From Rhodothermales bacterium (GTDB lineage Bacteria; Bacteroidota; Rhodothermia; Rhodothermales; Rubricoccaceae): DNA of 35,252 nucleotides. Under the pieces are notes generated by a model, which saw only the letters and a list, made by a program, of their open reading frames with translations, did not search any database and was not told where the DNA came from. Shown here piece after piece: positions 1 through 14,125 of this stretch (its first letter is position 1; every line of letters starts with the position of its first letter). The translations under genes were made by a program, and so were the position numbers. Location of the stretch: the NCBI GenBank assembly GCA_038233965.1, contig JBBSUZ010000001.1, positions 1 to 35,252 on the forward strand, given 5' to 3'.

Positions 1-82
1 AGCTCTGTTGGGGGTCCATCGTCATGTCGTCTCAGGTTGCCAGACCGGACGACGTTGACGTGGACCCCCTCCGTTTGTTGTC

Positions 83-1921
83 TCAGGGCCGGTTCACCGC
101 TTCGCGCACACCTACCTCGAATCCATCGGCTATGGAAAACTCGTCTGTGTACTTGTAGTCGCCCTGAACTGGCTTTCCTACAGGCGTTTCTCCGGTGATC
201 GCCGCCGTCACGCGGGGCTTGGTGATGTGCTCACAGATTCCCCACTGCTCCCACTCGGGATCACCGGGCCGGAGCCCCTGATTCTGGAGAGATGCCTGCT
301 CAGCGGCGGCGACCTCGTTGTTGGTCACGCAGATGCACTGGCGGCTTCCACCGTCCTGACGGTTCAGGCGCATGACGGCGTGCGTTGTAGTGCCGGAGCC
401 GGCGAAGAAGTCGAGGATGGTGGCGTGTGGCTTGTCGGCAACGAAGAACCTGAGACAGTCCTCGACGGCGTAGAGCGATTTCGGAAAGGGGAACTTGCGA
501 CCGGGTAGAATGGAGCTGAGAAGGCGGCTTCCACCGTTACCGGCGTCGTGAGCTGGTATACGCCAAACATCTGACGGCACGAAGACAGTTTCTTGTTCGG
601 AGGCGGCAGTAATAACAGATCCATCTGGTTTGTGGCCAAGAACTGGGAATTGTCCCTGCTCAACTTTTTCGCGCTCACCTTTGTTGAGATAGTACAGTGC
701 CGTACGCGATTCTCGCCACGGTCCTATCTTTGCATAACCTTGCTCAATAAGCTCTTTTATCCGTGACGGACTGTTTTGCCATGTACCGTCTGTTCCATCC
801 TTTCGTATCGGCCAAACGGCGACACAGCCAGGTGGAGTTGGCACCTCCAAAATATCTTCGCCATAATAGGAATCTCCTACGCCAGCAAAAATTGAGTGAT
901 CTATTTGTTTCTTTATAAAGATAGGATAAAAACTGTTCCTCCCATCCTCGCGCCTCGCGTTCGTTCCGTCGCGCCGCATAAGTCGCCAGCGAAGAATAAA
1001 TTTATTCTTTGTCTGTACTGGGTTCCAATCCTCTGGCAAGGCCTGGGGGATAGGCCTGGCAGTGCCTAAAAACACAAAGTAGATGTATTCTACCGATCGG
1101 GAAAATGTGCCCTTGCGGGGCACGCCCCCAGTATTGATCGATGAGCTTACCATTGTGATACGAGCACCCGCAAAGGTCTGTTCAAGTAGCAAACCTAGGC
1201 GCAAGTACTCCTTCTCATCAATCGTGACGATCAGAACGGAATCCACCGGGTTCAGCAGCTCCTTCGCGACAAAGAGCCGTCTCTCGATCATGGCGAGCCA
1301 CTTAGAGTGCCGATACAGGTCCTCTGTCTCCACATAGTCGTTGTTGTACTTCCAGTCCCGCGCCCCTGTGTTGTACGGTGGGTCGATGTAGATGACGTCG
1401 ACCTTTCCCCGGTGAGTGTAGGTGAGCGCCTTCAGCGCGTGGTAGTTCTCGCCGTTTATGACCGTGTGGTAGGGCTTGACGCCGCCGCGCTCGACCTTCC
1501 CGGTCGAGACGAGTCCAGGGTAGATGGTGTCCCGGAATTCGGCAACCACCACGAGGTCGTCGACCGACACGTCTCGGGTTTCTCGCTCAGCACTCCCGGC
1601 TATCTCGATCTGTGCGACCCTCGTACCGTCAGAGGCAGAGACAATCGTCTTGACATACCAGGGCCGCTGATCTCCCTTGTTCGTCGTCCCCCGCTCGAGC
1701 AGTACCCGCACTTTATCGCCTTTACGTACGGGTCGTTGCGGCAACTCGACAGCTTCTGGCCTGTGACGCTCGAAGTTTAGTCCGAAGGCGCGGCGTGACG
1801 AGAGTGCTCGGAACTCACGCTCTAGGTCCGCGCCTAGCTGCTGGTCCTTCGCTTTGGTCTGAGCGATTAGCTCCGTGAGTCGAGACACTTCAGCAAGGCG
1901 TGTGACGGTATTTCGGAACAT
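83..1921 (-). CDS. Site-specific DNA methyltransferase, beta-class N6-adenine/N4-cytosine, type III Mod-like
   Basis: 612-aa ORF. Catalytic motif IV VIYIDPPYNTG (DPPY at about aa 180) precedes AdoMet motif I FFAGSGTTTHAV (about aa 505), which is the beta-class order with the variable region between them. The blocks NGENYHALKAL, HSKWLAMIERRL and VTIDEKEY are typical of Mod-type enzymes. Confidence 0.9.
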   Translation of the reverse strand: MFRNTVTRLAEVSRLTELIAQTKAKDQQLGADLEREFRALSSRRAFGLNFERHRPEAVELPQRPVRKGDKVRVLLERGTTNKGDQRPWYVKTIVSASDGTRVAQIEIAGSAERETRDVSVDDLVVVAEFRDTIYPGLVSTGKVERGGVKPYHTVINGENYHALKALTYTHRGKVDVIYIDPPYNTGARDWKYNNDYVETEDLYRHSKWLAMIERRLFVAKELLNPVDSVLIVTIDEKEYLRLGLLLEQTFAGARITMVSSSINTGGVPRKGTFSRSVEYIYFVFLGTARPIPQALPEDWNPVQTKNKFILRWRLMRRDGTNARREDGRNSFYPIFIKKQIDHSIFAGVGDSYYGEDILEVPTPPGCVAVWPIRKDGTDGTWQNSPSRIKELIEQGYAKIGPWRESRTALYYLNKGEREKVEQGQFPVLGHKPDGSVITAASEQETVFVPSDVWRIPAHDAGNGGSRLLSSILPGRKFPFPKSLYAVEDCLRFFVADKPHATILDFFAGSGTTTHAVMRLNRQDGGSRQCICVTNNEVAAAEQASLQNQGLRPGDPEWEQWGICEHITKPRVTAAITGETPVGKPVQGDYKYTDEFSIADGFEVGVREAVNRP

Positions 1922-2259
1922 ACCCCGGCCGGAACGGGCAGAACGGCTTCATCTGCACAGAGCGACGTCACGCCAAGTACGCGGCGCAGTCCGTCTTCGC
2001 GCAAGCGTCCCGGCCGAGACAGCGCTCGCGGCGGCTGAAGGAACGCAACTTCGAGTCTGGCACGGATTTGCTTGCCCGGCTCCGCGAGACGCTGGCGGCC
2101 GCTCCTAAGCTTTGAGGCATCCACCAAATGCTGCGCCGCTGTTCGAGCAGACCATTCATGGAGACGGCGCGCTGGCACCACTCTCCATGTGGCATTGGAA
2201 GCGCGTCCCTGGAAAGAGAATGAGCGCAATTCTCAGGCCGGGGACAGAATCAGAATCGC

Positions 2260-2279
2260 CGTGTCTCAGCTGAGACACG
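2260..2279 (-). terminator. Perfect 20-bp palindrome CGTGTCTCAG/CTGAGACACG, possibly a terminator or operator
   Basis: Read directly from the sequence. On the minus strand it is followed by GCGATTCTGATTCTGT (moderately U-rich). It lies between the rep-like operon and the methyltransferase gene. Confidence 0.35.
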
Positions 2280-2720
2280 CTCTCTCATCCGCCCCATCAA
2301 CCGGCAGTGGTGCCTGGACGAGATCGGTCAGGTTGGGGACCTCGTCTTCGGCGTCGAGGTTGAGCATCTCCCTCTCGAAGGTGGGCGGCGTTGAGGCGGG
2401 CGTGTCGGGATCGCGCCTTCTCCACCGGGAGACGCGAAAGGCCATCCTCACAGGTTATCGGATGATGGAAGTTCAATGCTTGTCACTGGCCTTCCTCGCC
2501 CTGTCTGTCGACCTCAAAGTGACGACGGCCTGCGATGACGCTTCCTCCTTCCACCATGCGCTTGTGCAGTGGCACGCCGAGCCGTTTCAGGCTGCGCTGT
2601 GGGACCGAGGCTCCCGTCTGCCTCGGTGATCTTGTCTGGCTTCTTTGCCTGTCGATGCTGTCGCCACCCCGATTAATACCCTTTCCTCTCATCCTGTTGC
2701 CTTTGGTAGAGGAGCCTTTC

Positions 2721-2814
2721 AAAGAGAGGCTGCAGGAAGAAAGGGGGAGGGAGGAGGAAGGAGGAGAAGGGGAGAGAAGAGGGGGAAAGAGGAAGAAGGG
2801 GCAGGAAGGGGGAA
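2721..2814 (+). repeat. Polypurine/polypyrimidine tract (GA-rich on the plus strand)
   Basis: About 94 nt with only a handful of pyrimidines, including an uninterrupted purine run at 2734-2801 (aggaagaaagggggagggaggaggaagg...). Confidence 0.9.
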
Positions 2815-2850
2815 CTAGTTTGCCAAGCTCTCAACCCCTCCCAAGTGTCA

Positions 2851-2933
2851 AATGGCTCCCTGCGTCCTGAATTAGAGCTTTATGGCTCGTTTGGGACACG
2901 TGATATTTTTTAGTACTGGGCCCTGAATGGCTC
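2851..2933. repeat. Three direct WATGGCTC repeats flanking an AT-rich patch, iteron-like
   Basis: AATGGCTC at 2851-2858, TATGGCTC at 2881-2888 and AATGGCTC at 2926-2933. The AT-rich stretch tgatattttttagtact is at 2901-2917. All of this lies immediately 3' of the polymerase-like gene. Confidence 0.45.
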
Positions 2934-2937
2934 ACGG

Positions 2938-4617
2938 TTACAGGAAGGACTTCTCTTCGAGGATGAGCCCCCCGAGCGGGAGATTTGCCACTGCTGCCGC
3001 CTGGGCCACCGCGTCCGGCGGGATCTCGCCCTGAACAGCCAGACCGTCGTGTTCGTGCGACAGAACCACGAACCCAAAGTCCTTCGACGATGCCGCGAGC
3101 GCGTGAATGAAGGCCGCTTCCCGGCCCTGGAGCACGAACGCCACCAACCGCCCTCGGCGCTGCGTCCGTGAACGCCCGAGGTCCTCGACTGCCACCTTCG
3201 CCCCGACGGCGTTCGTGATGTAGGTGAGCCCGTCCACGTTGTTGACCTGCCCCTGAGCCTGAACGAGCTCGCGCTCGAGCCACGTGTACCACGTCCGCAG
3301 CGCGACTCGGAGGCCAGCCGTGTAGTCGAGGAACCGCTTGTGCGTCGCGACGAACTCGTCCGGACCGACGGCATTCAGGATCGTCTCCGTGACTGTCCCA
3401 CGGCTGACGCTAAACGAGTACACCTTCCGCGCACGCGGCCCACGTCCCCGTGAGGCCGTCCTGACGCCGACCTGACGGCTCATCGGCAGCAGGCGCGCCT
3501 GAGCTTCAGACGGGACGCCGGCGGCCATGAGGACGGCATAGAGCACCTTCTTCCATGTGTCCACGGGCAGGCCTACGTAGGCCGCCGCTTTGTCCTTTCC
3601 CTCAACAGCGTACCGTTCCAGCCACGACCCGTCGATCCCCGCCTCCTTGAGCAGCACGAGCAGGATCATGGCCTGGCTGGCACGAAGGTCGTAGTTGCGG
3701 AAGTTGGGCACGTTGGTGTAGGCGGCGACTTTCATCTCGCGGGTGCAGCTCTGGAGGCCACCGTCGATCTGCCCGAGCCGGCCGAACGCCTGCGCGGTCA
3801 TGGCCGGCTCGTATACCCAGAGGCCGTCAGGAGCATCCTTGTCGAGCGGGCGGGCGCTCTGCGCGTGCACGGCCTGTGCGCAGAGCAGGTCGTTGACATA
3901 GCGGCCATTCGCGGTTGCCCACTCCTTCTTGTCTTCCACGGGCGTTGCGTCGGCAATCGCCTTCATCTCGGCGACGTGCTTCCAGATCGCTGGAAGGTTG
4001 ATGACCGACGGGCCGACCGCGTCCATGGCGCGGCGAATGGGCCTCGGAAGGGCGTTGTTGCCCCGGCCCGTGCGGGTGGACTTGGTCTTCCGAGCCGTCG
4101 GCTTCCCTTGGACGACGTTGTACAGGCGGAACTTCGTAGTCGCGGTGTCGGGCGTCAGACCCGCCTCGGCGTAGCGGCGGCGGACGTCGAGCGGAACGCG
4201 GTACTCGCGGCAGAGCCCCCGAGCGATCGAGTGCTCCTTGACCTCGATGAAGCCCTCGTCGAGGAGATACTCCCAGTCGGCGTCTCGGAAGTAGCGCCGG
4301 ATGAACAGCGAGGAGATCGGGACGAACGAGTCGGCGATGCCCAGCGCTGTCTCCTCGTCCATGTCCGCGTCGTCGATGCTGACCGGCGAGAATCGGCGGG
4401 ACGTGAGGATATAGAGGAACAGGGCGCGAGTCTGCTGCTGCGTGTGCACCGAGATCTCGGCCACCACGCCATCGGCGAACAGCGACTGGCTGGCCGTACC
4501 CGGAATCCACGTTCTCGGCGGCCGGGTGCGGCCCAGCGGCTGGGTGCGGCCCAGCGGGCGGGTGCCCGAGCGTACGCTTTTGTAGCTCTGATCGTCGTCG
4601 TCGAAAATGCTAGCCAT
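2938..4617 (-). CDS. Putative replication protein with divergent family-A (Pol I-like) polymerase motifs and no recognisable exonuclease domain
   Basis: 559-aa ORF with normal amino-acid composition. Motif A-like FRNYDLRASQAMILLVLL (D310). Motif B-like VGLPVDTWKKVLYAVLMAAG (K356/K357). QG motif VLQGREAAFIHALA (Q497, compare PolA IQGSAADIIKLAM). Motif C-like VLSHEHDGLAV (H523-D524, compare VHDE). The order and the A-to-B spacing (about 46 aa) resemble PolA enzymes. Confidence 0.6.
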   Translation of the reverse strand: MASIFDDDDQSYKSVRSGTRPLGRTQPLGRTRPPRTWIPGTASQSLFADGVVAEISVHTQQQTRALFLYILTSRRFSPVSIDDADMDEETALGIADSFVPISSLFIRRYFRDADWEYLLDEGFIEVKEHSIARGLCREYRVPLDVRRRYAEAGLTPDTATTKFRLYNVVQGKPTARKTKSTRTGRGNNALPRPIRRAMDAVGPSVINLPAIWKHVAEMKAIADATPVEDKKEWATANGRYVNDLLCAQAVHAQSARPLDKDAPDGLWVYEPAMTAQAFGRLGQIDGGLQSCTREMKVAAYTNVPNFRNYDLRASQAMILLVLLKEAGIDGSWLERYAVEGKDKAAAYVGLPVDTWKKVLYAVLMAAGVPSEAQARLLPMSRQVGVRTASRGRGPRARKVYSFSVSRGTVTETILNAVGPDEFVATHKRFLDYTAGLRVALRTWYTWLERELVQAQGQVNNVDGLTYITNAVGAKVAVEDLGRSRTQRRGRLVAFVLQGREAAFIHALAASSKDFGFVVLSHEHDGLAVQGEIPPDAVAQAAAVANLPLGGLILEEKSFL

Positions 4618-4733
4618 TGGGCTGGAAGTTTGGCTCAGAGCGCCACCAGCGGAGCAGGACTCTGAGCTATGAGAAGGGGATGGGGAGATGGCGGCTGCCA
4701 GACGCGGCTAGCGCTCTGGCAGCCGAGATGGGG

Positions 4734-5060
4734 CTACGCCGGCACGCCGTTGATGAGCAGCGTCCCGACCTCGAAACGAGGTGCCAGCCGGCCGGAATCG
4801 AGCAGGTCAATGATCTCGCTGCACTCCTCGGGGCGCAGTTCGGAGATCTGTTCACGGAGAGCGTCCTTCGTGAGCAGATCCACGATCACCTCAGGCCCGC
4901 CACACTTCAAATCGAAATCCCTGTCGTCCAGGGTATAGATCAGCGCCTCGCCTGTGTGCATCGTACTGCCGATGATGAGGGAGTACGTCCCACCGTTCGG
5001 ATCAATGGCGATCAGGCCGCCCTTGGCCGGGATGTCTGCTGGCGCAGGAAAAACAAGCAT
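4734..5060 (-). CDS. Hypothetical protein (108 aa)
   Basis: ORF with balanced composition, lying between the HTH gene and the polymerase-like gene on the same strand. I recognise no motif. Confidence 0.55.
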   Translation of the reverse strand: MLVFPAPADIPAKGGLIAIDPNGGTYSLIIGSTMHTGEALIYTLDDRDFDLKCGGPEVIVDLLTKDALREQISELRPEECSEIIDLLDSGRLAPRFEVGTLLINGVPA

Positions 5061-5139
5061 CGTGCTGTATGGTCATGATGGTGCCGTCAGGCAGCATCGT
5101 GTGTATGCCGGTCCCCGTGTGGGCTCGGCGTGGAAGTCC

Positions 5140-5430
5140 TCACGCACCCGCCTGCCCAGCCAGCCGCGAGACGGCGTGGCGGGAGTAGTAAACTGACCGA
5201 CCGACGCGGCGCACCGGAAGAAGGCCCAGGCTGGCCCAGCGGCTCAGGGTCGTGCGATGCCGCCCGTAGAGCTTTGAGGCCACGGCCGGCGTGACCCACT
5301 CCTCACCCTCCGCGACATGCGTGAGGATGGTCGCCAGGTTGCGGCGAAGCGACCGCTCGACCGCCTGGTCCACGGAGGAATCGACGAGGGCGCGGAGCGC
5401 GCTTTGCGTCGTGATGATGATGTCGGGCAT
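5140..5430 (-). CDS. Excisionase/AlpA-type helix-turn-helix DNA-binding protein (MerR-superfamily HTH_17-like)
   Basis: 96-aa ORF. The segment WVTPAVASKLYGRHRTTLSRWASLGLLPVRRVGRSVYYSRHAV matches the typical Xis/AlpA HTH-plus-wing pattern. It is the first gene of the minus-strand operon in the element. Confidence 0.75.
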   Translation of the reverse strand: MPDIIITTQSALRALVDSSVDQAVERSLRRNLATILTHVAEGEEWVTPAVASKLYGRHRTTLSRWASLGLLPVRRVGRSVYYSRHAVSRLAGQAGA

Positions 5431-5485
5431 GGCCGAGCGGGTTGGGAGGTGGCCTAAGCTTCCCCCACACGACCCGCAACCGCTA

Positions 5486-5522
5486 CCCGGTTACCTCCCG
5501 ATTACCCCCCGGTTACCTCCCG
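5486..5522. repeat. Three 11-bp-phased direct repeats (CCCGGTTACCTCCCG, CCCGATTACCCCCCG, CCCGGTTACCTCCCG)
   Basis: Perfect 15-mers at 5486-5500 and 5508-5522, with a degenerate copy at 5497-5511. They sit 56-92 bp upstream of the HTH gene start (5430). On the coding strand they read GGGAGGTAACC / GGGGGGTAATC / GGGAGGTAACC. Confidence 0.6.
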
Positions 5523-5526
5523 TTTG

Positions 5527-5715
5527 GCTAGTGCAGCGCCTCGTGATATCTGACAGGTATCACCCCGATCCTTGTCATCCCGGACCCCGATCCGGGATCT
5601 GCCTTTTCCTACGATATGTCCCTGGAAAGGCAGATCCCGGGTCAAGCCCGGGATGACATGGTTTGGGTGTAGAGGATGATTTCACCCGTCACACTCGACG
5701 TGATGCTGCACTAGC
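5527..5715. repeat. 189-bp composite imperfect palindrome, MITE/REP-like or cruciform-forming
   Basis: Outer inverted 11-mers: GCTAGTGCAGC at 5527-5537 and GCTGCACTAGC at 5705-5715. Inner arms at 5573-5609 and 5624-5658 share TGTCATCCCGG and CGGGATCTGCCTTT blocks. Each arm also contains its own small hairpin (CCCGGA...TCCGGG and CCCGGG...CCCGGG). Confidence 0.6.
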
Positions 5716-5869
5716 GCTCGTCTTCGCTTATAGACGTCGGCTCTCCGAAGGCACCCGCCCGCTGAAATTTTAGCACGCTGTTTAGAGCTTTATCGTTAAA
5801 TGATTCGGGCCTTATCCCTTTATCTGTCATAAAAGTGCTCTGCTTCGATTCTGGATTTTCGCGAAGCAT
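5711..5869 (-). CDS. Possible small ORF (52 aa), hypothetical
   Basis: My manual translation of the minus strand gives MLRENPESKQSTFMTDKGIRPESFNDKALNSVLKFQRAGAFGEPTSISEDER. It lies in the AT-rich region downstream of the 233-aa ORF. There is no homology evidence and it is below the ORF-track length cut-off. Confidence 0.2.
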   Translation of the reverse strand: MLRENPESKQSTFMTDKGIRPESFNDKALNSVLKFQRAGAFGEPTSISEDER

Positions 5870-5965
5870 ATTTGAAAGCAATTTTGATATTATGGATACT
5901 GTTGCTGTGACGCCCCCATTGTAGTTTTCAACATAATAATTATATATTAGTCTGCCAATTATTAA

Positions 5966-6667
5966 TCATGCACTATTAGGGCCAAATCTATTACCGCTGA
6001 TAGCACTGCAGTACATAGGCGATACATCACCATATGTTTTTATGGTATTCGAATCAGAGCTGATCTCAGTCGCTTCACCTACTACTTCAGCTTCGTCCGG
6101 TACCTCCAGTATGAAGGGGCCCTCTGTGAGCCACATCTCATCAGTGCGGCGTCTTATCTCAGATTCGGCAGCTTTGAGACGGCCTGAAACGAGAGCAAGA
6201 TATTCTTTCGCTTCTTTAAGGTCTGTCTCCGCAGACCACAAGAAGTCGGCGGTCACTTTGGTCGCTTCGGCCCAATTAGCTCCTTCCTTGAATGTGCGGG
6301 AGTAGACCGCATTCCTCCTGCTACCGGGATACTCAACCTCGCAGGCCGCCGCATCTGCCCCTTCTTGTTCGAGTCGGCGTCGGACGGCCACCCCGGCGCT
6401 CCGAGCGCCGCGCACTTCGTCTGACAGCAATTGAACGCTCTTCACTGCGCTCGTCTTCAGCTGCGTCAACTCGTCGCGAAGGTCTCGTAGGTCTCCTAAG
6501 GACAGAGATGGGTCAATCACTGGATCGTCTGGAACCGGACGTGAGCCGGAGTCGAGTACCCAGGCATCGTAGCGCGCCTTGTACTTCGAAATGGAGATCC
6601 TCGTCCGCTCCTCCTGTTCCAGTCTAAGACGATCTGCCTCTTGCTTCTCTTCAGTTATTGAGCGCAT
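5966..6667 (-). CDS. Hypothetical protein (233 aa), AT-rich cargo gene
   Basis: ORF with a plausible, charged, coiled-coil-like composition. The opposite-strand ORFs here are Ser-rich junk. Its 3' half is far more AT-rich than the host. I recognise no motif. Confidence 0.65.
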   Translation of the reverse strand: MRSITEEKQEADRLRLEQEERTRISISKYKARYDAWVLDSGSRPVPDDPVIDPSLSLGDLRDLRDELTQLKTSAVKSVQLLSDEVRGARSAGVAVRRRLEQEGADAAACEVEYPGSRRNAVYSRTFKEGANWAEATKVTADFLWSAETDLKEAKEYLALVSGRLKAAESEIRRRTDEMWLTEGPFILEVPDEAEVVGEATEISSDSNTIKTYGDVSPMYCSAISGNRFGPNSA

Positions 6668-6869
6668 CAGGGTTGATGCCCGAGAGCGATGGAGTGTTCA
6701 GAATAGCCCAAGGTCTGCGCGAGTCCAGGCAGACCCGATGGCCGAGTTCTGACCCGGACAGGCGAGGCCACGAAGGCATCGAGATGGTTACCTTTGGCCA
6801 CAGCGTTGACGACTATGCTCCTGCTGCCCACAAGTTCTTGCAAGACAGGGGTATAAGTGCAAGGGTTTG

Positions 6870-6943
6870 TGGGCGGTGAGGGACTCGAACCCCCGGCCTA
6901 CTCGGTGTAAACGAGCCGCTCTAACCAGCTGAGCTAACCGCCC
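6870..6943 (-). tRNA. tRNA-Val (anticodon TAC)
   Basis: The reverse complement GGGCGGTTAGCTCAGCTGGTTAGAGCGGCTCGTTTACACCGAGTAGGCCGGGGGTTCGAGTCCCTCACCGCCCA folds as a 74-nt cloverleaf. The anticodon loop is TTTACAC and the T-loop is GGTTCGAGTCC. Confidence 0.95.
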
Positions 6944-6951
6944 GACACGCG

Positions 6952-6977
6952 CGAGGCCCGGCTTTCACCGGGCCTCG
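6952..6977 (-). other. 10-bp stem-loop in the tRNA-Gly/tRNA-Val spacer
   Basis: CGAGGCCCGG (6952-6961), a 6-nt loop, then CCGGGCCTCG (6968-6977). This fills most of the 35-nt spacer. Confidence 0.5.
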
Positions 6978-6978
6978 G

Positions 6979-7051
6979 AGCGGGAAACGGGATTCGAACC
7001 CGCGACCCTCAGCTTGGGAAGCTGATGCTCTACCAACTGAGCTATTCCCGC
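6979..7051 (-). tRNA. tRNA-Gly (anticodon CCC)
   Basis: The reverse complement GCGGGAATAGCTCAGTTGGTAGAGCATCAGCTTCCCAAGCTGAGGGTCGCGGGTTCGAATCCCGTTTCCCGCT folds as a 73-nt cloverleaf. The anticodon loop is TTCCCAA. Confidence 0.95.
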
Positions 7052-7110: not shown

Positions 7111-7287
7111 CCCGCCGACCATGTCGGGCCAGCGGGCTGGCCGGAAGTCAACGTCCCTTCACCGAGTCACGGCCTAGGCGGGCGTATCATCGCCGCACGG
7201 CCGTCCGAGTGGCGCACTGAGGTGTGCAGCGCGGGCGGCGATTTTGTCTCTGACCTTTCCGGCCCGGCTCGCCCGGCCCGCCTCCCG

Positions 7288-7443
7288 ATGAAGCGCACCT
7301 ACCAGCCCAGCCGCCGCAAGCGGGCCAACAAGCACGGCTTCCGCTCCCGCATGGCCACCAAGAACGGCCGCAACGTTCTCGCCCGCCGCCGCGCGAAGGG
7401 CCGTCACGCCCTGACGGTTCACGACACGAAGGCTAGCAAGTAG
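7288..7443 (+). CDS. rpmH: 50S ribosomal protein L34
   Basis: [44 protein letters not shown] is the canonical L34 sequence. I used the internal ATG at 7288 of the 7222-7443 ORF. Confidence 0.95.
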
Positions 7444-7447
7444 GCCC

Positions 7448-7936
7448 GTGGCGGCTCTCCCCGACGACCGCGCGCCCCGGCTCCACGCCTTCCCGCGCGG
7501 GCGCCGTCTGAAGCGCCGCCGCCTGCTCCGGCCCCTCTTCGACCGCGCCCGGCCCGACGTCGGGCGCGTTCGTGTCGGGCCGGTCGTGCTGCTGACGCGC
7601 GTCGTCGCCCGCGCCGAGACCGGGGCCGATAGCCCCGTTCAAGTGGCCTTCGCCCCGGGCCGCATCGTCCGCGGAGCCGGCCGGGTCCGCCTGCGGCGCG
7701 TGATGCGCGAGACCTTCCGGCTGCACCAGCAGCCGCTCGTCGATGCCTTCGCCGGCCGCCCGGACTGCCTCTCGGCCGTCGTCCTCTTTCGCGGGCCGGC
7801 CGCGACGGCCGAGGCCGACGTCCGGCGGTGCCTCCCCGAGGCCCTCCGCCGCGCCGCCGACCGCCACGCCAGCCGGCCCGTCGCCGCGCTCCGGCACCCC
7901 GACGCGGACCGCACCTCTGGCCCGCCGGCCGCGTAG
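7448..7936 (+). CDS. rnpA: Ribonuclease P protein component
   Basis: The position immediately after rpmH, a GTG start, a basic N-terminus RLKRRRLLRPLFDR and VAFAPGRIVRGAGRVRLRRVMRE fit RnpA. It has a longer C-terminal tail than usual. Confidence 0.8.
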   Translation: MAALPDDRAPRLHAFPRGRRLKRRRLLRPLFDRARPDVGRVRVGPVVLLTRVVARAETGADSPVQVAFAPGRIVRGAGRVRLRRVMRETFRLHQQPLVDAFAGRPDCLSAVVLFRGPAATAEADVRRCLPEALRRAADRHASRPVAALRHPDADRTSGPPAA

Positions 7937-7975
7937 CGCGGCCTCCCCAACCCGCGCCCCGGCGCGCCCGACTAC

Positions 7976-9880
7976 GTGGAACCGCAGGGATTCGACCGCA
8001 ACGCGCTCATCGGCATCCTCCTGATGTCGCTGCTGCTCGGCGTCTGGATGGTCTACACCGCGCCGACGCGCGACCAGGCCGCCCGCCAGCAGACCATCGC
8101 CGACTCGACCGCTGCGGCCGAGACGCGCACGCAGGACGCCTCGCCCGACGACGCCGAGATCGGGCCGGCCGCGCCGGGCGTGCTCACCGCCCCGACCGAC
8201 TCCACCTTCGCCAGTGCCGGCGACTCGACGGCCGGCCCGGGCCGCCTCGTGACGGTCCGCACGGACAAGTACGAGGCGACGTTCTCGACGCGCGGCGGCA
8301 CGCTCGTCCGCTTCCGCCTGCTCGGCTTCAACCATGCGTCGACGGCCGAGCCGGTCGAGCTCGTCTCGGCGCGCAACGGCGCGCTCGGCGTCGGCTTCGT
8401 CCCGCCGCAGGGCGCCTACCTCGACACGCGGACGCTCGCGTTCGCGCCGAGCGTCGGCGCCACGCCGTTCGCGGGCGATACGCTCCGCGCGACGGACGGC
8501 CCGGCCGAGCTCCGCTTCGAGACGCGCATGCCCGGCCAGAACGGCCGCCCCGGCGCGCTCCGCTTCGTCTACTCCTTCGCCCCGGACTCGTACGACGTCG
8601 GGATGCGCGTCGAGGCCGTCGGGACGGACGCGCTCGCGCGCGGCTCCTACGACCTCGCGTGGAACGGCGCGCTCCCGCTCGCCGAGGAGGACCCCAAAGG
8701 CGAGACCACGCAGGCCGGCGCCTATCTCCGCTCCGGCGGCGAGACCGAGTCCATCCACCTCCGCAAGCCCATCACCGCCGACCCGATCGAGCGCACGGGC
8801 AACGTGGACTGGGTCGCGGTGAAGACCAAGTTCTTCATCGCCGCCGTCATCCCGACGGCGCCGACGGTCGCGGCCGGCGCCCGCCTCACGGGCCAGCAGG
8901 TCGGCACGGCCGGCGAGTCCGGCTTCTCGCAGGACTTCACGGCCACGCTCGAGATGCCGGCCCTCGCGGCCGGGCAGGCGCAGGCGCTCACGCTCTACCT
9001 CGGCCCGCTCGAGCTGCGCCGCCTCGCGACCGACGGCCTCTACGACACGGTCGACTTCGGCTTCGGCGGCTTCATCACGCGGCCGATCGCGCGCTACGTC
9101 TTCGCGCCGCTGTTCGCCTTCCTCTCGACGTTCATCGCGAGCTATGGCCTCGTCATCATCCTCTTCGCGCTGATCGTGAAGCTGGTGCTGTGGCCGCTCA
9201 CGAGCGCGTCCTACCGCTCGGCGGCCAAGATGCGCGAGCTCCAGCCCGAGCTCGCCGCGCTCAAGGAGCAGTTCCCGGACGACCAGCAGAAGCAGCAGGA
9301 GGGCATGATGCGGCTCTACAAGGAGCGCGGCGTCAACCCGCTCGGCGGCTGCCTGCCGATGCTGCTCCAGTACCCGATCCTGATCGCGCTGTGGCGCTAC
9401 TTCCAGAGCACGCTCGTCCTCCGCGGCGAGTCGTTCCTGTGGGCGCACGACCTCTCGGCGCCGGACGTCATCGCGATGCTGCCGTTCCGGATTCCGGCCT
9501 ACGGCGACCACGTCTCGGGCTTCACGCTGCTCATGGCGGCGTCCATGATCGCGACGATGAAGCTCTCGCAGCCGTCGGGCAACGCCGTCACGGGCCAGCA
9601 GAAGGCGTTTCTGTACCTGATGCCGGTGATGTTCCTGTTCTTCTTCAACGGCTTCCCGGCCGGCCTGAGCCTCTACTACCTCGCGTTCAACATCTTCTCG
9701 GTCGTCCAGCAGCGGATCGTGAACAACCAGGTCCACGCGCAGGCGCAGAAGGGCGAGATCCCGGGCATCGGCGCCGCCGTGACGGTCAAGGGCACGCCGA
9801 AGGCGAAGACCAACGGCCGCGCGGGCAGCATCACGTCGCGCGCCGTCGCGGACGCCGCCGCGCGCCGAAAGAAAAAGTAG
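7976..9880 (+). CDS. yidC: Membrane protein insertase YidC (long, Bacteroidota-like form)
   Basis: 634 aa. It has an N-terminal TM segment (FDRNALIGILLMSLLLGVWMVY), a large periplasmic domain and the conserved C-terminal core (NPLGGCLPMLLQYPILIALW, GLSLYYLAFNIFSVVQQ). Synteny is rpmH-rnpA-yidC-mnmE. Confidence 0.95.
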   Translation: MEPQGFDRNALIGILLMSLLLGVWMVYTAPTRDQAARQQTIADSTAAAETRTQDASPDDAEIGPAAPGVLTAPTDSTFASAGDSTAGPGRLVTVRTDKYEATFSTRGGTLVRFRLLGFNHASTAEPVELVSARNGALGVGFVPPQGAYLDTRTLAFAPSVGATPFAGDTLRATDGPAELRFETRMPGQNGRPGALRFVYSFAPDSYDVGMRVEAVGTDALARGSYDLAWNGALPLAEEDPKGETTQAGAYLRSGGETESIHLRKPITADPIERTGNVDWVAVKTKFFIAAVIPTAPTVAAGARLTGQQVGTAGESGFSQDFTATLEMPALAAGQAQALTLYLGPLELRRLATDGLYDTVDFGFGGFITRPIARYVFAPLFAFLSTFIASYGLVIILFALIVKLVLWPLTSASYRSAAKMRELQPELAALKEQFPDDQQKQQEGMMRLYKERGVNPLGGCLPMLLQYPILIALWRYFQSTLVLRGESFLWAHDLSAPDVIAMLPFRIPAYGDHVSGFTLLMAASMIATMKLSQPSGNAVTGQQKAFLYLMPVMFLFFFNGFPAGLSLYYLAFNIFSVVQQRIVNNQVHAQAQKGEIPGIGAAVTVKGTPKAKTNGRAGSITSRAVADAAARRKKK

Positions 9881-9902
9881 AGACGCCCCGCCGGGGCGTC
9901 TC
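9880..9902. repeat. REP-like GC hairpin GAGACGCCCC-GCC-GGGGCGTCTC
   Basis: Perfect 10-bp stem starting at the last base of the yidC stop codon. Related copies are at 10001-10023 and 21849-21886, with a half-site at about 9930-9940. Confidence 0.7.
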
Positions 9903-10000
9903 GGACGGGCCGCGACGTCTTCACCACGCCGGGGCGTCTTGAGCAACCTGCCGGTCATCTCCGACCGACGACCAAAGCACCTGGCAGGGCGCGCTGGCCG

Positions 10001-10023
10001 GAGACGCCCCAGCTGGGCGTCTC
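10001..10023. repeat. REP-like GC hairpin GAGACGCCC-CAGCT-GGGCGTCTC
   Basis: 9-bp perfect stem with the same core motif as 9880-9902, in the yidC-mnmE spacer. Confidence 0.7.
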
Positions 10024-10051
10024 TACGGGCGGACCCTCTCACCGACTGCCG

Positions 10052-11422
10052 ATGGCGGACGACGCTCCCATCATCGCCCTCGCGACGGCCCGAGGCGCGT
10101 CCGCGCTGGCCGTCGTGCGCGTCTCGGGCGCGGGCGCGGTCGAACTCGTCGCCTCGCGCTTCTCGCGTCCCGACCTCGCCGATGCGCCGGGCCACTCGGT
10201 CCACACGGGCTGGATCGTGGACGCCGCGGGCGAGCGCGTGGACCAGGTCGTCGTGACGGTCTTCCGCGCGCCGCGCTCGGCCACGGGCGAGGACACGGCC
10301 GAGGTCACGACGCACGGCGGCGACGCCGCGCCGCTCGCCGTGCTGCGCGCGCTCGTCGGCGCGGGTGCGCGGCCGGCCGCACCGGGCGAGTTCACGCAGC
10401 GCGCCTTCCTGAACGGCAAGCTGGACCTCGCGCAGGCCGAGGCCGTCGCCGACCTCATCCATGCGACCGGCACGCGCGGCGCCCGCGCCGCCGTCGCGCA
10501 GATGCAGGGCCGCATCGGGGACGCCGTCGCGGACGTCCGCGAACACCTCGTCGACGTCGCGGCGCTGATCACGCTCGAGCTCGACTTCGCCGAGGAGGAT
10601 GTCGACTTCGCGGACCGCGCCGACCTGGCCGTCCGCCTCGACGCGGCCGACGCCCGCCTCGCCGAGTTGCTCTCGACGGCGCGCCTCGGGGCACTTCTCC
10701 GCGACGGCGCGCGCGTCGTGCTCGCCGGGCGGCCCAACGCGGGCAAGTCCACGCTCGCCAACGCGCTCGCCGGCCGCGAGCGCTCCATCGTCTCGGACGT
10801 CCCGGGCACCACGCGCGACGCCGTCGAGACGGACGTCGAGATCGACGGCTTGCGCGTGCGTCTCGTCGATACCGCGGGCCTGCGGGAGACGGACGACGCG
10901 ATCGAGGCCGAGGGCACACGCCGCGCCCGACAGGCCCTCGAGTCCGCCGACGCCGTCCTCTACCTCGCCGACGCCGGCGCCGGCCTCGACGCCGACGAAC
11001 GCGCCGACCTCGACGCGCTCGCCGCGTCCCGCCCGGACCTGCCCGTCCTGCGCGTCGCGAGCCGGTCGGACCGCGTCGCCGCTCCGCACCCGACACTCGT
11101 CGGCGCGCTGGCCGTCTCGGGCCGCGACGCTGCGGCCGACCCCGCGCTGCTCGACCCGCTCCGGGCGTCCATCCTCGCCGCCCTCCGCGCCGACGATGCG
11201 ACCGACGATGCCCGCGCCGTCAACGAGCGCCACCGCGCCTGCCTCGCCGACGCGCAGGCGGCCGTCCACCGGGCGCAGGCCGCGCTCGCGCGCGGGACAG
11301 ACGCGGACCTGCTCGCGCTCGACCTCCGCGACGCGCTCCACGCCCTCGGCCTCGTCACGGGTGCCGTCACGGCGGACGACGTCCTCGGGGCCGTCTTCTC
11401 GCGCTTCTGCATCGGCAAGTAG
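10052..11422 (+). CDS. mnmE: tRNA modification GTPase MnmE
   Basis: 456 aa. N-terminal IIALATARGASALAVVRVSG, G-domain GRPNAGKSTLANAL and DTAGLRET, and the diagnostic C-terminal FCIGK. Confidence 0.95.
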   Translation: MADDAPIIALATARGASALAVVRVSGAGAVELVASRFSRPDLADAPGHSVHTGWIVDAAGERVDQVVVTVFRAPRSATGEDTAEVTTHGGDAAPLAVLRALVGAGARPAAPGEFTQRAFLNGKLDLAQAEAVADLIHATGTRGARAAVAQMQGRIGDAVADVREHLVDVAALITLELDFAEEDVDFADRADLAVRLDAADARLAELLSTARLGALLRDGARVVLAGRPNAGKSTLANALAGRERSIVSDVPGTTRDAVETDVEIDGLRVRLVDTAGLRETDDAIEAEGTRRARQALESADAVLYLADAGAGLDADERADLDALAASRPDLPVLRVASRSDRVAAPHPTLVGALAVSGRDAAADPALLDPLRASILAALRADDATDDARAVNERHRACLADAQAAVHRAQAALARGTDADLLALDLRDALHALGLVTGAVTADDVLGAVFSRFCIGK

Positions 11423-11428
11423 CCGACG

Positions 11429-11896
11429 CTACGCCAGCGCCAGCGCCTCCGGCGCGCGCTCCATGTGCACCGACGCGTTCGCGTACGTCAGCCGCCACGT
11501 GTCGAGCTGCTCCTCGGTCAGCCGGTCGATCAGCGCCGCGACCTCGTCGATCGACTCGTCGACGTCGGCGAAGAGCAGGCGGATCGTCTCGGGGTCGGGC
11601 CTCTCCGAGACCCACATCTTCATCGCCGCGAGCTGGTTCAGCACCTGGTCGCGCAGCATCTCGCGGACCTCGACGATGACCTGGCTGCGCAGTGAGCGCT
11701 CACGGCGGCTGTTGGCCCACGCGATGAGGCCGTGGATCAGGCCGATCGCGATCGCCGTCGCGAAGATGGCCACGGCGACCGGCACGTCCCGCAGTGACAT
11801 CACCCCGGCCATCGTGACGAACCCGGCCGTCAGCACGACGACGTAGATCTCGACGCGCCGGACGAGATGACGAGTGACGGGAGAGGCGGCCTGCAT
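11429..11896 (-). CDS. Hypothetical membrane protein (2 TM segments plus a cytoplasmic helical domain)
   Basis: ORF 11429-11935, with the start probably at the internal ATG at 11896 (MQAASPVTRH...). Hydrophobic segments are VEIYVVVLTAGFVTMAGV and VAVAIFATAIAIGLIHGLIAW. It is convergent with mnmE. Confidence 0.55.
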   Translation of the reverse strand: MQAASPVTRHLVRRVEIYVVVLTAGFVTMAGVMSLRDVPVAVAIFATAIAIGLIHGLIAWANSRRERSLRSQVIVEVREMLRDQVLNQLAAMKMWVSERPDPETIRLLFADVDESIDEVAALIDRLTEEQLDTWRLTYANASVHMERAPEALALA

Positions 11897-12440
11897 GCAT
11901 ATCGAGATTGACACGTCAAACGGAATCGGATGCATCGGGGCATCTTTCAGTCAGCGCGCCGGATGGGGGCGTCTGCGTTGCGCCAGAACCGAGTGAACCG
12001 AACCTGTCGGGCGCATGAGTGAGCCACGTGGCTGCGCTGGCGCTCTGCGCAAACGGCCGACGTGGAGATCGGTGAACGGCTGACGGTGTAGCGCGGCCGA
12101 CCCGCCTACGTTTCGGGCGTGTCCATCCGGTCTTTCGATGACGATGCTCCACGCGGCCCTCGGTACCCCGATCTGCACGCCGTCCGATGCTCGCCTCGGT
12201 CCGGTCGAGACGCGCCTCATGGCGGCCCTCTTCGACGCCGACGGCGCGACCGAGAGCGCGCGCTATCACGCCCACGCTCGACGCGCTGACCCGGCGCGGA
12301 CTCGTCGACCAGGCCGCGAGCCGCGTCTGGTTGACCGCCGGCGGCTTCGCGCTCCGCCGCGCGACCGGTCCGGGACGGCCGGCCGATGCCGGACCGCGGT
12401 CGTAGGATGCCGGGCCCGCCCCGCCCACGACTGCGCCCCC

Positions 12441-13187
12441 GTGATCAAGCTGTTCCTCGCCGACATCGACGGCTGCCTCTCCGAGCCGTACCGCCCGTTC
12501 CGCCTCGATGCCTTCGCCCGCCTGCGCGCCCACGTCGAGCGCGCCGAGACGGACGCGGGCGTGCCGCGCTTCGGCCTGTGCTCGGGCCGCAGCTACGCCT
12601 ACGTCGAGGCGACGGCGCAGGCCGTCGGCGTCCGCGCGCCGGTCCTGTTCGAGAGCGGCGGCGGCCGCTTCGACCTGCCCGCCGCGCGCATCACGTGGCA
12701 CCCGGACCTCACGCCGGCCGTCGAGGCCGAGCTCGCGGCCGTCCGCGGGTTCATGACCGCGACCGTCGTCCCGCGCGCCGAGACCGTCTCGTACGACTAC
12801 GGCAAGCGCGCGCAGGCCGGCATCGTCAGCCCCGTCGTCGGCGAGTGCGACGCGTTTCTGCCCGAGATCGAGGCGTTCGTCGCCGCGCACACGCCCGCGC
12901 TCGTCGCCTACCGGACGCCGTACTCGGTCGACGTCGTCCCGCGCGCGCTGACGAAGGTGCGCGCGATCGAGTGGCTGGCCGGGCAGGAGGGGCTCTCGAT
13001 GGACGAGATCGCCTTCGTCGGCGACACCGTCGGCGACGCGGCGGCGCTGCGGGCGGTCGGGGCCGGCTTCGCGCCCGCCAACGCCGATGCCGAGGCCCGA
13101 GCGGCCGCGACCGTCGTCACGCGCGGGGCTGTGCTCGACGGCGTCGAGGAGGCGTTCGCGATGTGTCTGGCCGCGAACGGGGCGTGA
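12441..13187 (+). CDS. HAD-superfamily hydrolase (HAD-IIB/Cof-like phosphatase)
   Basis: A GTG at 12441 gives VIKLFLADIDGCL (motif I DxDG). Motif IV is FVGDTVGDAAAL. The upstream part of the 12138-13187 ORF looks non-coding. Confidence 0.8.
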   Translation: MIKLFLADIDGCLSEPYRPFRLDAFARLRAHVERAETDAGVPRFGLCSGRSYAYVEATAQAVGVRAPVLFESGGGRFDLPAARITWHPDLTPAVEAELAAVRGFMTATVVPRAETVSYDYGKRAQAGIVSPVVGECDAFLPEIEAFVAAHTPALVAYRTPYSVDVVPRALTKVRAIEWLAGQEGLSMDEIAFVGDTVGDAAALRAVGAGFAPANADAEARAAATVVTRGAVLDGVEEAFAMCLAANGA

Positions 13188-13285
13188 CCGGGCGCCGCCG
13201 GATGCTCTTTTCGGTGCCCTTCGTGCGCTCGGGGTTTGATCTCGCGTTGGTGCTGCCGATACCTTGGCGCCCCACCGCAGGCCCG

Positions 13286-14125
13286 ATGCGCACCGTCCCG
13301 ACCCGTCTCCGCTCGTTCGCTGTCGCTGCCGCCCTCCTCATCGGGCCGGCCGCCGTGGCACAGCCGGCGGCCACGTCGAGCACGGGCGGCCCGAGCCTCG
13401 CCTCGGACCGTGCGCACGCGGCCCGCACGCCGCGCTCGCCCGACGCCGCGACGGCGCCGGCGTTCTACGTCGTCGCGGCCGGCACGTCGATGCGCCGCAC
13501 GCCTTCGGCGACGGCCCCGGCCGTCGAAACGCTGCGGCTGCGCGAGGGCGTCCGCGTGCTCGGCGACACGCTCGCCGGCGGCCGCCAGTGGGCCCGCGTC
13601 GCCTTCGGCGGCAGCCGCGGCTACGTCCCCGCCGAGGCGCTCTCGAACGTCTGGATCCGCGTCGACAAGTCCGACCGGACGCTCTACGTCTACCACGGCG
13701 CCGAGCTCGTCCGCACGCTCCCCGCCGACGTCGCCGTCTCCGACGGCGACAAGGTGCGCCGCTCGGGGCAGGACGAGCGCGAGCACTGGCGCATGCCCGA
13801 GGGCGTCTTCTACGTCGTCGGCCGCAACGACCGCTCGTCGTACTACCGCGCCTTCGTGCTGTCGTACCCGGACCCGGTCCACGCGCTGCGCGGCCTCGAA
13901 CAGGGGCTGATCACCGAGGCGACGTACCAGGCCATCGTCCGCGCCGACGCCGACGGCGTCGCGCCGCCGATGGGCACGTCGCTCGGCGGCCTCATCGAGG
14001 TCCACGGCTCGGGCTCGGGTCGCCGCGAGGCGTGGACGCGCGGCTGCGTCGCACTCCGCAACGTCCACATGGACGACCTGTGGGACATCGTGCAGGTCGG
14101 GACGCCGGTCGTGATCGAGCCGTAA
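13286..14125 (+). CDS. L,D-transpeptidase (YkuD domain) with N-terminal SH3b-like domain, secreted
   Basis: Signal peptide MRTVPTRLRSFAVAAALLIGPAAVAQ. SH3b-like segment YVVAAGTSMRRTPS...WARVAFGGSRGYVPAEAL. YkuD catalytic pattern EVHGSGSGRREAWTRGCVALRN (His...Gly-Cys). Confidence 0.85.
   Translation: MRTVPTRLRSFAVAAALLIGPAAVAQPAATSSTGGPSLASDRAHAARTPRSPDAATAPAFYVVAAGTSMRRTPSATAPAVETLRLREGVRVLGDTLAGGRQWARVAFGGSRGYVPAEALSNVWIRVDKSDRTLYVYHGAELVRTLPADVAVSDGDKVRRSGQDEREHWRMPEGVFYVVGRNDRSSYYRAFVLSYPDPVHALRGLEQGLITEATYQAIVRADADGVAPPMGTSLGGLIEVHGSGSGRREAWTRGCVALRNVHMDDLWDIVQVGTPVVIEP

Follow-up and report, generated by a model that had tools for sequence, protein, structure and literature searches.

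The open reading frame (ORF) at positions 2938–4617 of a 35,252-nt stretch of Rhodothermales DNA (Rubricoccaceae; GenBank assembly GCA_038233965.1, contig JBBSUZ010000001.1, positions 1–35,252 of the forward strand, hereafter the window) is best explained, with a probability of about 0.6, as the gene of a minimal family-A polymerase of the 'transposon-virus polymerase' (TV-Pol) kind, from the subset with an N-terminal TV-PolN domain, which would be a backbone gene of an element integrated at a tRNA-Val gene and act there as a primase-polymerase. The gene, on the minus strand, has an ATG start and 559 codons before its stop codon; we assign it as TV-Pol-type from the ORF listing, an AlphaFold model, fold matches in the Protein Data Bank (PDB) and a profile–profile alignment (hhalign) with DNA polymerases I (PolA). 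What our analysis established directly is the fold, the homology to PolA, a conserved active site, the lack of a nuclease, the family membership and the genomic context. A preliminary description of this DNA, made from its letters alone, had proposed an exonuclease-less, highly divergent family-A-like polymerase that replicates a tRNA-integrated element of a class not yet described; the polymerase itself is supported and its role in replication is plausible, whereas the claim to an undescribed class does not stand.

A family-A fold visible by structure and profile comparison

Taken as a single sequence, the protein has no match in Pfam, PHROGs, NCBIfam, PADLOC or a sequence search of the PDB, and a 17-sequence profile also retrieved nothing from the PDB. 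Pfam DNA_pol_A gave no match even at E ≤ 1, either for the polymerase or for 17 members of its family. From 17 homologues AlphaFold2 produced a confident model (mean predicted local distance difference test (pLDDT) score 82.3, predicted template modelling score 0.80), and searching it against the PDB with Foldseek returned 161 matches at E ≤ 1 × 10−3. The best 50 of these 161 are all family-A DNA polymerases, including Taq, Klenow, Bst, M. smegmatis Pol1, T7 gp5 and the apicoplast polymerase, with a probability of 1.00, E values from 4 × 10−6 and template modelling (TM) scores of 0.30–0.40 over 365–625 alignment columns; no unrelated Rep or primase fold appeared among these 50. Among the viral matches are PolAs annotated in phages and the replication protein of a virophage (Zamilon virus V6BPG7).

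Profile–profile comparison leads to the same place. We aligned a profile of 137 family sequences with one of 36 PolA sequences (E. coli Pol I residues 476–928, T7 gp5 and 34 diverse PolAs from IMG/VR) and obtained P = 2.3 × 10−6 and a probability of 89% over 204 collinear columns, spanning residues 270–531 of the query and 656–889 of E. coli Pol I in the correct motif register. Against E. coli Pol I, T7 DNA polymerase or T7 RNA polymerase (RNAP) taken singly, the expected regions aligned at P = 0.03–0.2, so significance is reached only with the 36-sequence profile and single-sequence templates are insufficient. The predicted fold is thus established by two independent lines, the model and the profile–profile comparison, and the protein is a highly divergent homologue of family-A polymerases that is not a member of the curated Pfam family PF00476.

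With canonical family-A enzymes (Pol I Klenow/KlenTaq, T7 gp5 and the apicoplast polymerase) it shares the thumb–palm–fingers fold and, in collinear order, the TGR hairpin and the A, B, QG and C motifs. It differs from them in lacking both 3′–5′ and 5′–3′ exonucleases, in having a core of roughly 370 rather than roughly 410 or more residues, in the replacement of the R754, Y766, E710 and E883 equivalents, and in a similarity that is visible solely by profile–profile or structure comparison; the canonical motifs DYSQIELR, RRxAKxxNFGxxYG and HDE are recognisable only by profile–profile alignment.

An apparently intact active site with altered selectivity residues

The four motif strings singled out in the preliminary description are real: YDLRASQAMIL occupies residues 309–319 (nt 3661–3693), VGLPVDTWKKVLYAVLMAAG residues 348–367 (nt 3517–3576), VLQGREAAFIHALA residues 495–508 (nt 3094–3135) and SHEHDGLAV residues 520–528 (nt 3034–3060). 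Its numbering of D310 and D524 was right, and the hhalign alignment bears out the motif register that it had proposed. In that alignment R280 (nt 3778–3780) pairs with R668 of E. coli Pol I (Klenow), Q289 with Q677, D310 (nt 3688–3690) with D705, Q315 with the steric gate E710, K356 (nt 3550–3552) with K758, Y360 with F762, M364 with Y766, Q497-G498 with Q849-G850, and H523-D524-G525 (nt 3043–3051) with H881-D882-E883. A fifth motif had been overlooked: FGRLgQxxGGLQS, which corresponds to TGRLSSxxPNLQN in PolA.

Conservation was computed on 128–137 homologues with only 25–50% overall identity. R280, D310, K356, N469, E500, D524 and K556 are invariant across 128 sequences; in the set of 137, R280 and D310 reach 100% and D524 99–100%, so that both aspartates aligned with the metal ligands of Pol I are conserved among homologues. 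At least 90% conservation is also seen for D243 (93%), G279, Q289, K296, N308, Q497, G498, H523 and G525. Invariant catalytic residues in members this divergent are the signature of a working active site, and we regard the site, judged by its sequence, as apparently intact. A catalytically dead polymerase fold, reused as a DNA-binding initiator or a structural protein, would fit the missing PolA residues (the motif-B Arg and the Y766 and E883 equivalents) and has a precedent in mobile-element 'Pol' partners that have been reduced to a possibly inactive RNA recognition motif (RRM) core (Rice 2023, PMC10061031); yet these homologues show little or no variation in the metal-binding Asp pair, in K356 of motif B, in R280 of the hairpin or in Q497-G498, which makes this reading very improbable.

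The departures from Pol I that had been listed for the single protein hold throughout the family. Four residues before the motif-B Lys (K−4), 82 of the 137 members have Val, 19 have Lys and only 4 have Arg, and Met stands at the Y766-equivalent position in 105. At the steric-gate position 315 we find Gln (124 members) or His (13) and in no case Glu, and motif C reads HDG rather than HDE, with Gly in 99% of the family. Together, a Gln/His steric gate, HDG and the missing motif-B Arg leave open the choice between deoxyribonucleoside and ribonucleoside triphosphates (dNTPs and rNTPs).

These substitutions are also what would speak for a single-subunit RNAP, either transcribing the genes of the element or making long RNA primers, because they replace, family-wide, the residues by which Pol I excludes ribonucleotides (Gln/His for E710, and HDG where T7 RNAP has HDS). 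A local match to T7 RNAP at motif C further shares the downstream 'G.IP.DA', and ancestral TV-Pol-like enzymes have been proposed to have had an RNA-polymerising primase activity (PMC2579912). The closeness to T7-type RNAPs that the preliminary description had suspected could not be shown, however: there is no Pfam match to PF00940, no RNAP is among the best 50 of the 161 PDB fold matches, and with a T7-like RNAP profile hhalign reaches only P = 0.11, compared with 2.3 × 10−6 for PolA, and aligns motif C and 'G.IP.DA' only, a weak comparison since that profile is shallow (Neff 1.9) and its sequences are 62–100% identical. The N-terminal promoter-binding and specificity-loop elements known from T7-type RNAPs are absent from the protein, which is also much shorter (~560 residues versus 883 for T7 RNAP). 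On balance we consider an RNAP unlikely.

Domain architecture without a nuclease

The domain boundaries given here are taken from the model and the alignments, with coordinates on the minus strand. Residues 1–33 (4519–4617) form a disordered, poorly conserved tail (pLDDT below 50 for residues 1–31). An 18-nt in-frame tandem duplication, RPLGRTQPLGRT (repeats at 4518–4562), produces the repeated peptide RPLGRT/QPLGRT in this disordered, non-conserved tail. Residues 38–190 (4048–4506) make up an extra N-terminal domain, equivalent to TV-PolN, which according to DSSP is mostly helical with a short β-hairpin. The thumb follows at residues 192–253 (3859–4044), where two long antiparallel helices (208–224 and 230–252), modelled at pLDDT above 90, come directly before the segment of residues 265–300 (3718–3825), a β-hairpin with the template-contacting R280 between its strands 273–275 and 281–283 and then GGLQS and K296.

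Motif A covers residues 306–325 (3643–3702), a strand ending in D310 and then a helix with Q315, as placed by hhalign and conservation. The fingers, likewise delimited by hhalign, span residues 326–460 (3238–3642) and include motif B (K356, Y360 and M364) as well as a low-confidence insertion (residues 380–405; pLDDT below 50 at 386–405) that is restricted to the closest relatives. The C-terminal palm (residues 461–559, 2941–3237), defined by hhalign and invariance, contains N469, LQGxEA (Q497-G498 and E500), motif C and K556. The N-terminal 300 residues had been described as devoid of recognisable motifs; only residues ~1–190 lie outside the core, and residues 192–300 hold the thumb, the R280 hairpin and GGLQS.

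The polymerase has no exonuclease domain, whether of the proofreading or of the 5′-nuclease type, as had been proposed. The family alignment holds no conserved acidic (DEDD) residue before D243, a model of the N-terminal region (residues 1–262, pLDDT 73) has no significant fold match in the PDB (best E = 0.5) and none to a nuclease, and no nuclease Pfam matches the 17 members searched. An exonuclease remnant in the N-terminal domain was considered and rejected on the conservation and the fold search. The weak fold matches are nearly all winged-helix regulators (PadR, MarR and HxlR), a hint from the model that the N-terminal domain may be winged-helix-like and bind DNA. Among ten longer family members none was seen to carry a helicase or primase fusion; one distant member has a C-terminal HNH_3 and another a weak HTH_36 match.

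Probable membership in the TV-Pol family

TV-Pols were defined computationally by Iyer, Abhiman and Aravind in 2008 (Biol Direct 3:39, PMC2579912) as proteins of 400–600 amino acids from Bacteroidetes, Planctomycetes, Proteobacteria, Firmicutes, the cyanophage Ma-LMM01, Sputnik and others, and were proposed as a minimal, possibly ancestral form of the Pol I/T7 RNAP superfamily. Their core is that of a minimal PolA/T7 RNAP, with a coiled-coil thumb, a β-hairpin bearing an absolutely conserved Arg, an RRM-like palm with two metal-chelating Asp residues, and helix-turn-helix (HTH)-like fingers with an Asp and RxxxK. In no known case are they linked to a nuclease. They are either fused or linked to D5-like helicases or carry the N-terminal TV-PolN domain, predicted to be all-helical, and the genes of this latter subset lie in integration hot spots with many restriction–modification (R-M) operons, beside a γδ resolvase, a λ-type integrase or an IS605/IS630 transposase. 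TV-Pols were predicted to act as primase-polymerases of transposons and small viruses (PMC2579912).

The polymerase in the window and its family resemble the TV-PolN subset in size, minimal core, lack of a nuclease, extra N-terminal domain, recombinase and R-M setting, and hosts (Bacteroidetes-type among others). The antiparallel helices N-terminal to the palm correspond to the TV-Pol thumb, R280, present in all 137 sequences, to the hairpin Arg, and D310 and D524, the equivalents of D705 and D882, to the palm pair. In the fingers K356 is invariant and D353 occurs in 82 of 137 members, but the Arg of RxxxK is unconserved, with Val in most members. The absence of a nuclease has one exception among the ten longer members, the distant one with HNH_3, and the mostly helical domain at ~38–190 takes the place of TV-PolN, from which it differs by its short β-hairpin, TV-PolN having been predicted as strictly all-helical. 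No D5-like helicase is linked to the gene, in contrast to the helicase-linked TV-Pols, and the TV-PolN-type family described here has no name in Pfam, NCBIfam or PHROGs.

For a direct comparison at the sequence level, we searched the whole genome of Microcystis phage Ma-LMM01 (162 kb) with a hidden Markov model (HMM) of the family and with the PolA profile. The family HMM matches exactly one ORF, MAP_030 (506 amino acids, E = 1.4 × 10−38), which is flanked by IS200/IS605 TnpA and TnpB and, like most of the family, has Val instead of Arg at K−4. The match begins at HMM position 6 and therefore includes the N-terminal domain. The canonical PolA profile matches only the regular split polymerase of this phage, MAP_178 and MAP_180. 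MAP_134, also linked to a transposase, encodes a primase of the DnaG type, and MAP_030 is the sole non-canonical TV-Pol candidate in the phage genome.

Taken together, the protein very probably belongs to the TV-Pol family. It is a new member of a kind known since 2008, and its clade, with an N-terminal TV-PolN domain, is not a new category. Because the protein is a TV-Pol, the earlier claim that no such class had been described is wrong: the TV-Pol family, including its TV-PolN subset, was published in 2008 (PMC2579912), and CcPol-MP also precedes our work (PMC7581432).

A recurrent backbone gene of integrative elements

An exhaustive HMM search of 1.84 billion representatives found 972 family clusters (at 50% identity) with E ≤ 1 × 10−3 and 464 with E ≤ 1 × 10−30. 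Most members have 480–560 amino acids and align end to end with the HMM, and every named one is annotated as 'hypothetical protein'. Matches include Rubricoccaceae and Rhodothermaceae, which together with the 74% GC of the DNA outside the island points to a host that is probably one of the Rhodothermales. Jumbo Vibrio phages and two cyanobacterial plasmids carry distant homologues.

In the window, the gene lies in an island of 6.9 kb with a low GC content (51–66% across positions 1–6868, compared with 74% in the host DNA that makes up the remainder), which adjoins the 3′ end of a tRNA-Val(TAC) gene at 6869. That the element sits at a tRNA had been claimed before and is supported; this tRNA (6869–6943, minus strand, found by ARAGORN and Rfam) is the likely integration target. 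Core genes, including rpmH and yidC, lie in the 74%-GC part. The tRNA-Val/tRNA-Gly pair (6869–7051) borders the island, and an rpmH–rnpA-like–yidC–mnmE cluster (7222–11422) is nearby. The tRNA junction and the R-M cargo are the sole neighbourhood features of the TV-Pol type that are visible in the window itself; since the island extends past the left edge, its integrase, second att repeat and far end are out of view.

Other loci that we retrieved (L001, L002 and so on) supply the remaining features. A string made of a protein of ~290–320 amino acids, an HTH_17 protein, a small ORF and the polymerase recurs in L001 and L003–L005. A tyrosine integrase adjoins the polymerase in L001, a resolvase and an integrase are present in L007, in L002 the gene lies between DDE transposases, and in L014 it has a gene for a resolvase-type HTH protein upstream; on Calothrix plasmid6 the companion is a serine recombinase and in Ma-LMM01 it is IS200/IS605. 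R-M genes stand near the polymerase in the window and in L002, L003, L006 and L014, within a cargo that changes from locus to locus: downstream of the polymerase we find a type III Mod methyltransferase in the window, type I R-M and Thoeris-like genes in L006, Eco57I and T5orf172-ResIII in L003, DarT/Macro, a reverse transcriptase and type I R-M in L002, and type I R-M in L014. As the gene string and the link to recombinases recur while the cargo varies, the polymerase belongs to the backbone and not to the cargo.

The distant homologue on plasmid6 of Calothrix sp. NIES-4105 (L095, AP018296), a 13.7-kb circle, runs across the origin of the record (12314–13693 plus 1–483) and, read across the junction, is an intact open frame of ~620 codons that matches the family HMM at E = 4 × 10−134. 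A large serine recombinase is encoded two genes before it, and it is the only recognisable replication-type gene of the plasmid, on which no Rep, primase or replicative helicase can be discerned, a gene content that gives circumstantial support to a role in replication. The PLSDB gene table for AP018296 has no gene for the part before the record start and lists the rest as a short 'hypothetical protein' at 43–486.

These contexts also bear on whether the protein is instead cargo, a DNA polymerase that serves repair, translesion synthesis or defence. It is always found among R-M, Thoeris, DarT or other defence genes, distant homologues occur in jumbo phages that own replicases, and Ma-LMM01 encodes a regular PolA and a DnaG primase besides its homologue. 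However, the defence genes differ by locus while the HTH_17/small ORF/polymerase string and the recombinase link recur, the polymerase has no PADLOC match, and it is the sole recognisable replication-type gene on the Calothrix circle, so that we judge a cargo polymerase quite unlikely; a component of a defence system was rejected as the primary explanation, given the variable cargo and the lack of a PADLOC match. We infer from context that the polymerase is plausibly the replication gene, as a primase-polymerase, of the excised element. The same assignment in the preliminary description is supported as far as the conserved backbone position next to recombinases and the Calothrix plasmid go, the role itself being read from these surroundings.

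Two loci contain additional ORFs related to the polymerase. In L014, a locus of a Rhodothermaceae metagenome-assembled genome (ORFs at 8944–10134 and 9848–11650), an ORF upstream of and overlapping the polymerase gene matches the family HMM with E = 7.7 × 10−15; by its sequence it may be a duplicate with a frameshift or a stand-alone paralogue of the N-terminal domain, such as the 2008 paper reports for TV-PolN. In L001 (ORFs at 9439–10059 and 10001–11404), the polymerase (P0004, 467 amino acids, 71% identical) looks truncated at its N terminus, and a 206-aa ORF overlapping its start probably encodes the missing part, so that this contig may contain a frameshift or have been misassembled.

Relation to other polymerases of mobile elements and phages

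The nearest functional precedent is CcPol-MP of the staphylococcal cassette SCCmec, a PolA-type primase of a mobile element for which de novo DNA priming has been shown experimentally (Bebel et al. 2020, PMC7581432); according to its authors, no other TV-Pol had been characterised in 2020. PolA-SSB primases of Bacillota mobile elements are related to it; their small partner, an ssDNA-binding protein with an oligonucleotide-binding fold, has its gene between those of the polymerase and a helicase (Rice 2023, PMC10061031). CcPol and the polymerase in the window both have a family-A catalytic domain without a working exonuclease and lie on integrative elements near site-specific recombinases. CcPol, however, is close to the housekeeping Pol I, keeps the E710 and F762 equivalents and is specific for dNTPs, whereas position 315 is Gln or His here and the sequence is far more divergent, without a match to Pfam DNA_pol_A. 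CcPol also needs a partner with an oligonucleotide-binding (OB) fold, MP, and is co-operonic with the helicase Cch2, whereas our polymerase carries an N-terminal domain of its own. We therefore rejected an architecture of the CcPol-MP type, as there is no helicase and no recognisable OB-fold partner, and the small ORF is upstream instead of downstream and conserved only in close relatives.

The divPolA2 proteins of barbaviruses and Vibrio phages are divergent and PolA-like; their palm is active, they lack an exonuclease, their N-terminal part is a globular domain of unknown fold and their neighbourhoods vary, and the authors suggest that they may be RNAPs (Virol J 2024, PMC11348598). They resemble the polymerase described here in architecture, yet the two are not homologous at the HMM level, and a link to them (representative AUR84708) was rejected on this ground. 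Pipolins are tRNA-integrated elements whose self-priming hallmark gene encodes piPolB, a primer-independent polymerase of family B (mentioned in PMC10061031). The concept of a replicative polymerase of a tRNA-inserted element would be the same here, by analogy, with a polymerase of family A in place of family B.

Neighbouring genes and candidate cis elements

The island genes described here are on the minus strand. Directly upstream lies a small acidic ORF of 108 amino acids (4734–5060) that is conserved only in the closest elements, with 73% identity to an ORF of L098 (122–448) and 34% to one of L099 (1471–1824). These ORFs have 108–117 amino acids and a common C-terminal motif, 'SG..APRF...L.I.G.PA'. 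The 108-aa ORF has no match in Pfam, PHROGs, NCBIfam or PADLOC and no detectable kinship with its positional counterparts, the small ORFs of L001 and L003; by analogy with the MP of CcPol-MP, it could be a partner subunit of the polymerase. The next gene (5140–5430) belongs to the conserved backbone and encodes a 96-aa excisionase/MerR-like DNA-binding protein of the HTH_17 type (PF12728, E = 3.5 × 10−7) that also matches phrog_66, 'excisionase and transcriptional regulator', and has homologues in the same position in L001 (49% identity) and L003 (38%).

The first island gene next to the tRNA (5966–6667, from the ORF listing) encodes a coiled-coil-like protein of 233 amino acids that has no family match in Pfam, PHROGs or NCBIfam and is dissimilar to the proteins of 285–324 amino acids at the equivalent position in L001, L002 and L003. 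At the other end, the cargo gene at 83–1921 encodes a type III R-M methyltransferase (Mod) of 612 amino acids (PADLOC PDLC03645 MTase_III, E = 2.2 × 10−272; Pfam N6_N4_Mtase). Its partner Res gene, if present, would lie past the left edge of the window. Just after the Mod stop codon there is an inverted repeat with 22-nt arms (10–31 and 48–69).

Repeat searching and folding pointed to a candidate cis element at 5486–5715, where three repeats spaced by 11 nt (CCCGGTTACCT-like, 5486–5525) are followed by nested inverted repeats that form a hairpin of ~190 nt (5527–5715). Both lie in a 535-bp intergenic region upstream of the HTH_17 gene, which has the lowest GC content of the island (51%); the equivalent regions in L001 and L003 measure only ~115–137 bp. 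The hairpin folds with z = −6.8 as DNA and −8.4 as RNA, and none of 200 shuffled sequences folds as well. It has no Rfam match and no second copy in the window or the retrieved loci, which rules out a miniature inverted-repeat transposable element. At a guess, it is an origin, a priming site or a regulatory RNA.

A second candidate emerged from comparison with L098 and L099, the closest elements. It lies at 2734–2828 on the minus strand, starting ~110 nt past the stop codon of the polymerase gene, and consists of the 20-nt motif GCTTGGCAAACTAGTTCCCC (2809–2828) and then an 81-nt polypyrimidine tract (2734–2814), which is purine-rich on the plus strand. The motif is invariant in these three closest elements, that is, the window, L098 (region 2338–2370) and L099 (3717–3730), and the window and L098 are 77% identical for 678 nt past the polymerase stop codon despite their differing cargo. 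Motif and tract could be an origin or a priming site. Within the minus-strand stretch downstream of the polymerase (2266–2722), the segment ~2290–2420 is almost identical to L098, and a possible ORF of 61 amino acids at 2266–2451, with '...TPPTFEREMLNLDAEDEVPNLTDLVQAPLPVDG', lies inside this conserved 'non-coding' stretch and could encode a small protein.

Discussion

Reading the gene as a TV-PolN-type primase-polymerase of an integrated element has to be weighed against several observations. The motif-B Arg of the RxxxK signature, given for TV-Pols and PolA, is missing in the family, although MAP_030 lacks it too. The match with MAP_030 covers HMM positions 6–375 only, leaving motif C of MAP_030 unaligned, and its identity with the TV-Pol that the 2008 paper assigns to this phage was deduced by elimination. 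Within the window neither an integrase nor a second att site is visible, the island continuing beyond the left edge. D5-linked TV-Pols and CcPol have a helicase gene beside them, but none of the contexts that we examined shows one linked to the polymerase, and none follows it in the window, L001, L003, L006, L098 or L099. No OB-fold partner was recognised either, the 108-aa upstream ORF being known in this respect from family searches only, which gave no match. Finally, its priming, its substrate and its origin site are inferred.

How such an enzyme might serve the element can be proposed from the prediction made for TV-Pols and by analogy with the activity demonstrated for CcPol-MP. The element would be excised by its recombinase, with the HTH_17 protein assisting, and the polymerase would bind a site specific to the element, perhaps by means of the N-terminal domain with its weak winged-helix likeness. 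It would then start synthesis de novo as a primase-polymerase and extend the product, so that the circular form is replicated or, after transfer, a second strand is made on the incoming single-stranded DNA, with the host supplying a helicase and the bulk of synthesis. A more far-reaching version, which we hold to be possible but doubtful, is that the clade consists of helicase-independent initiators of the PolA type whose N-terminal domain would recognise an origin (5486–5715 or 2734–2828), which, through their altered sugar-selection residues (Gln/His at the steric gate, HDG and no motif-B Arg), would start chains with ribonucleotides and which would represent a living intermediate between Pol I and T7 RNAP.

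The TV-PolN-type clade is large, with its 972 clusters, and invisible to Pfam, NCBIfam, PHROGs and PADLOC. Its polymerase is a marker for the backbone of integrative elements whose cargo consists of R-M and anti-phage defence genes, and recognising it would sharpen the delimitation of defence islands. The only biochemically tested relative, CcPol-MP, is atypical and Pol I-like (PMC7581432); a compact (~560 residues) and confidently modelled protein such as the one described here is a candidate for learning how a PolA active site initiates chains and chooses between dNTPs and rNTPs.

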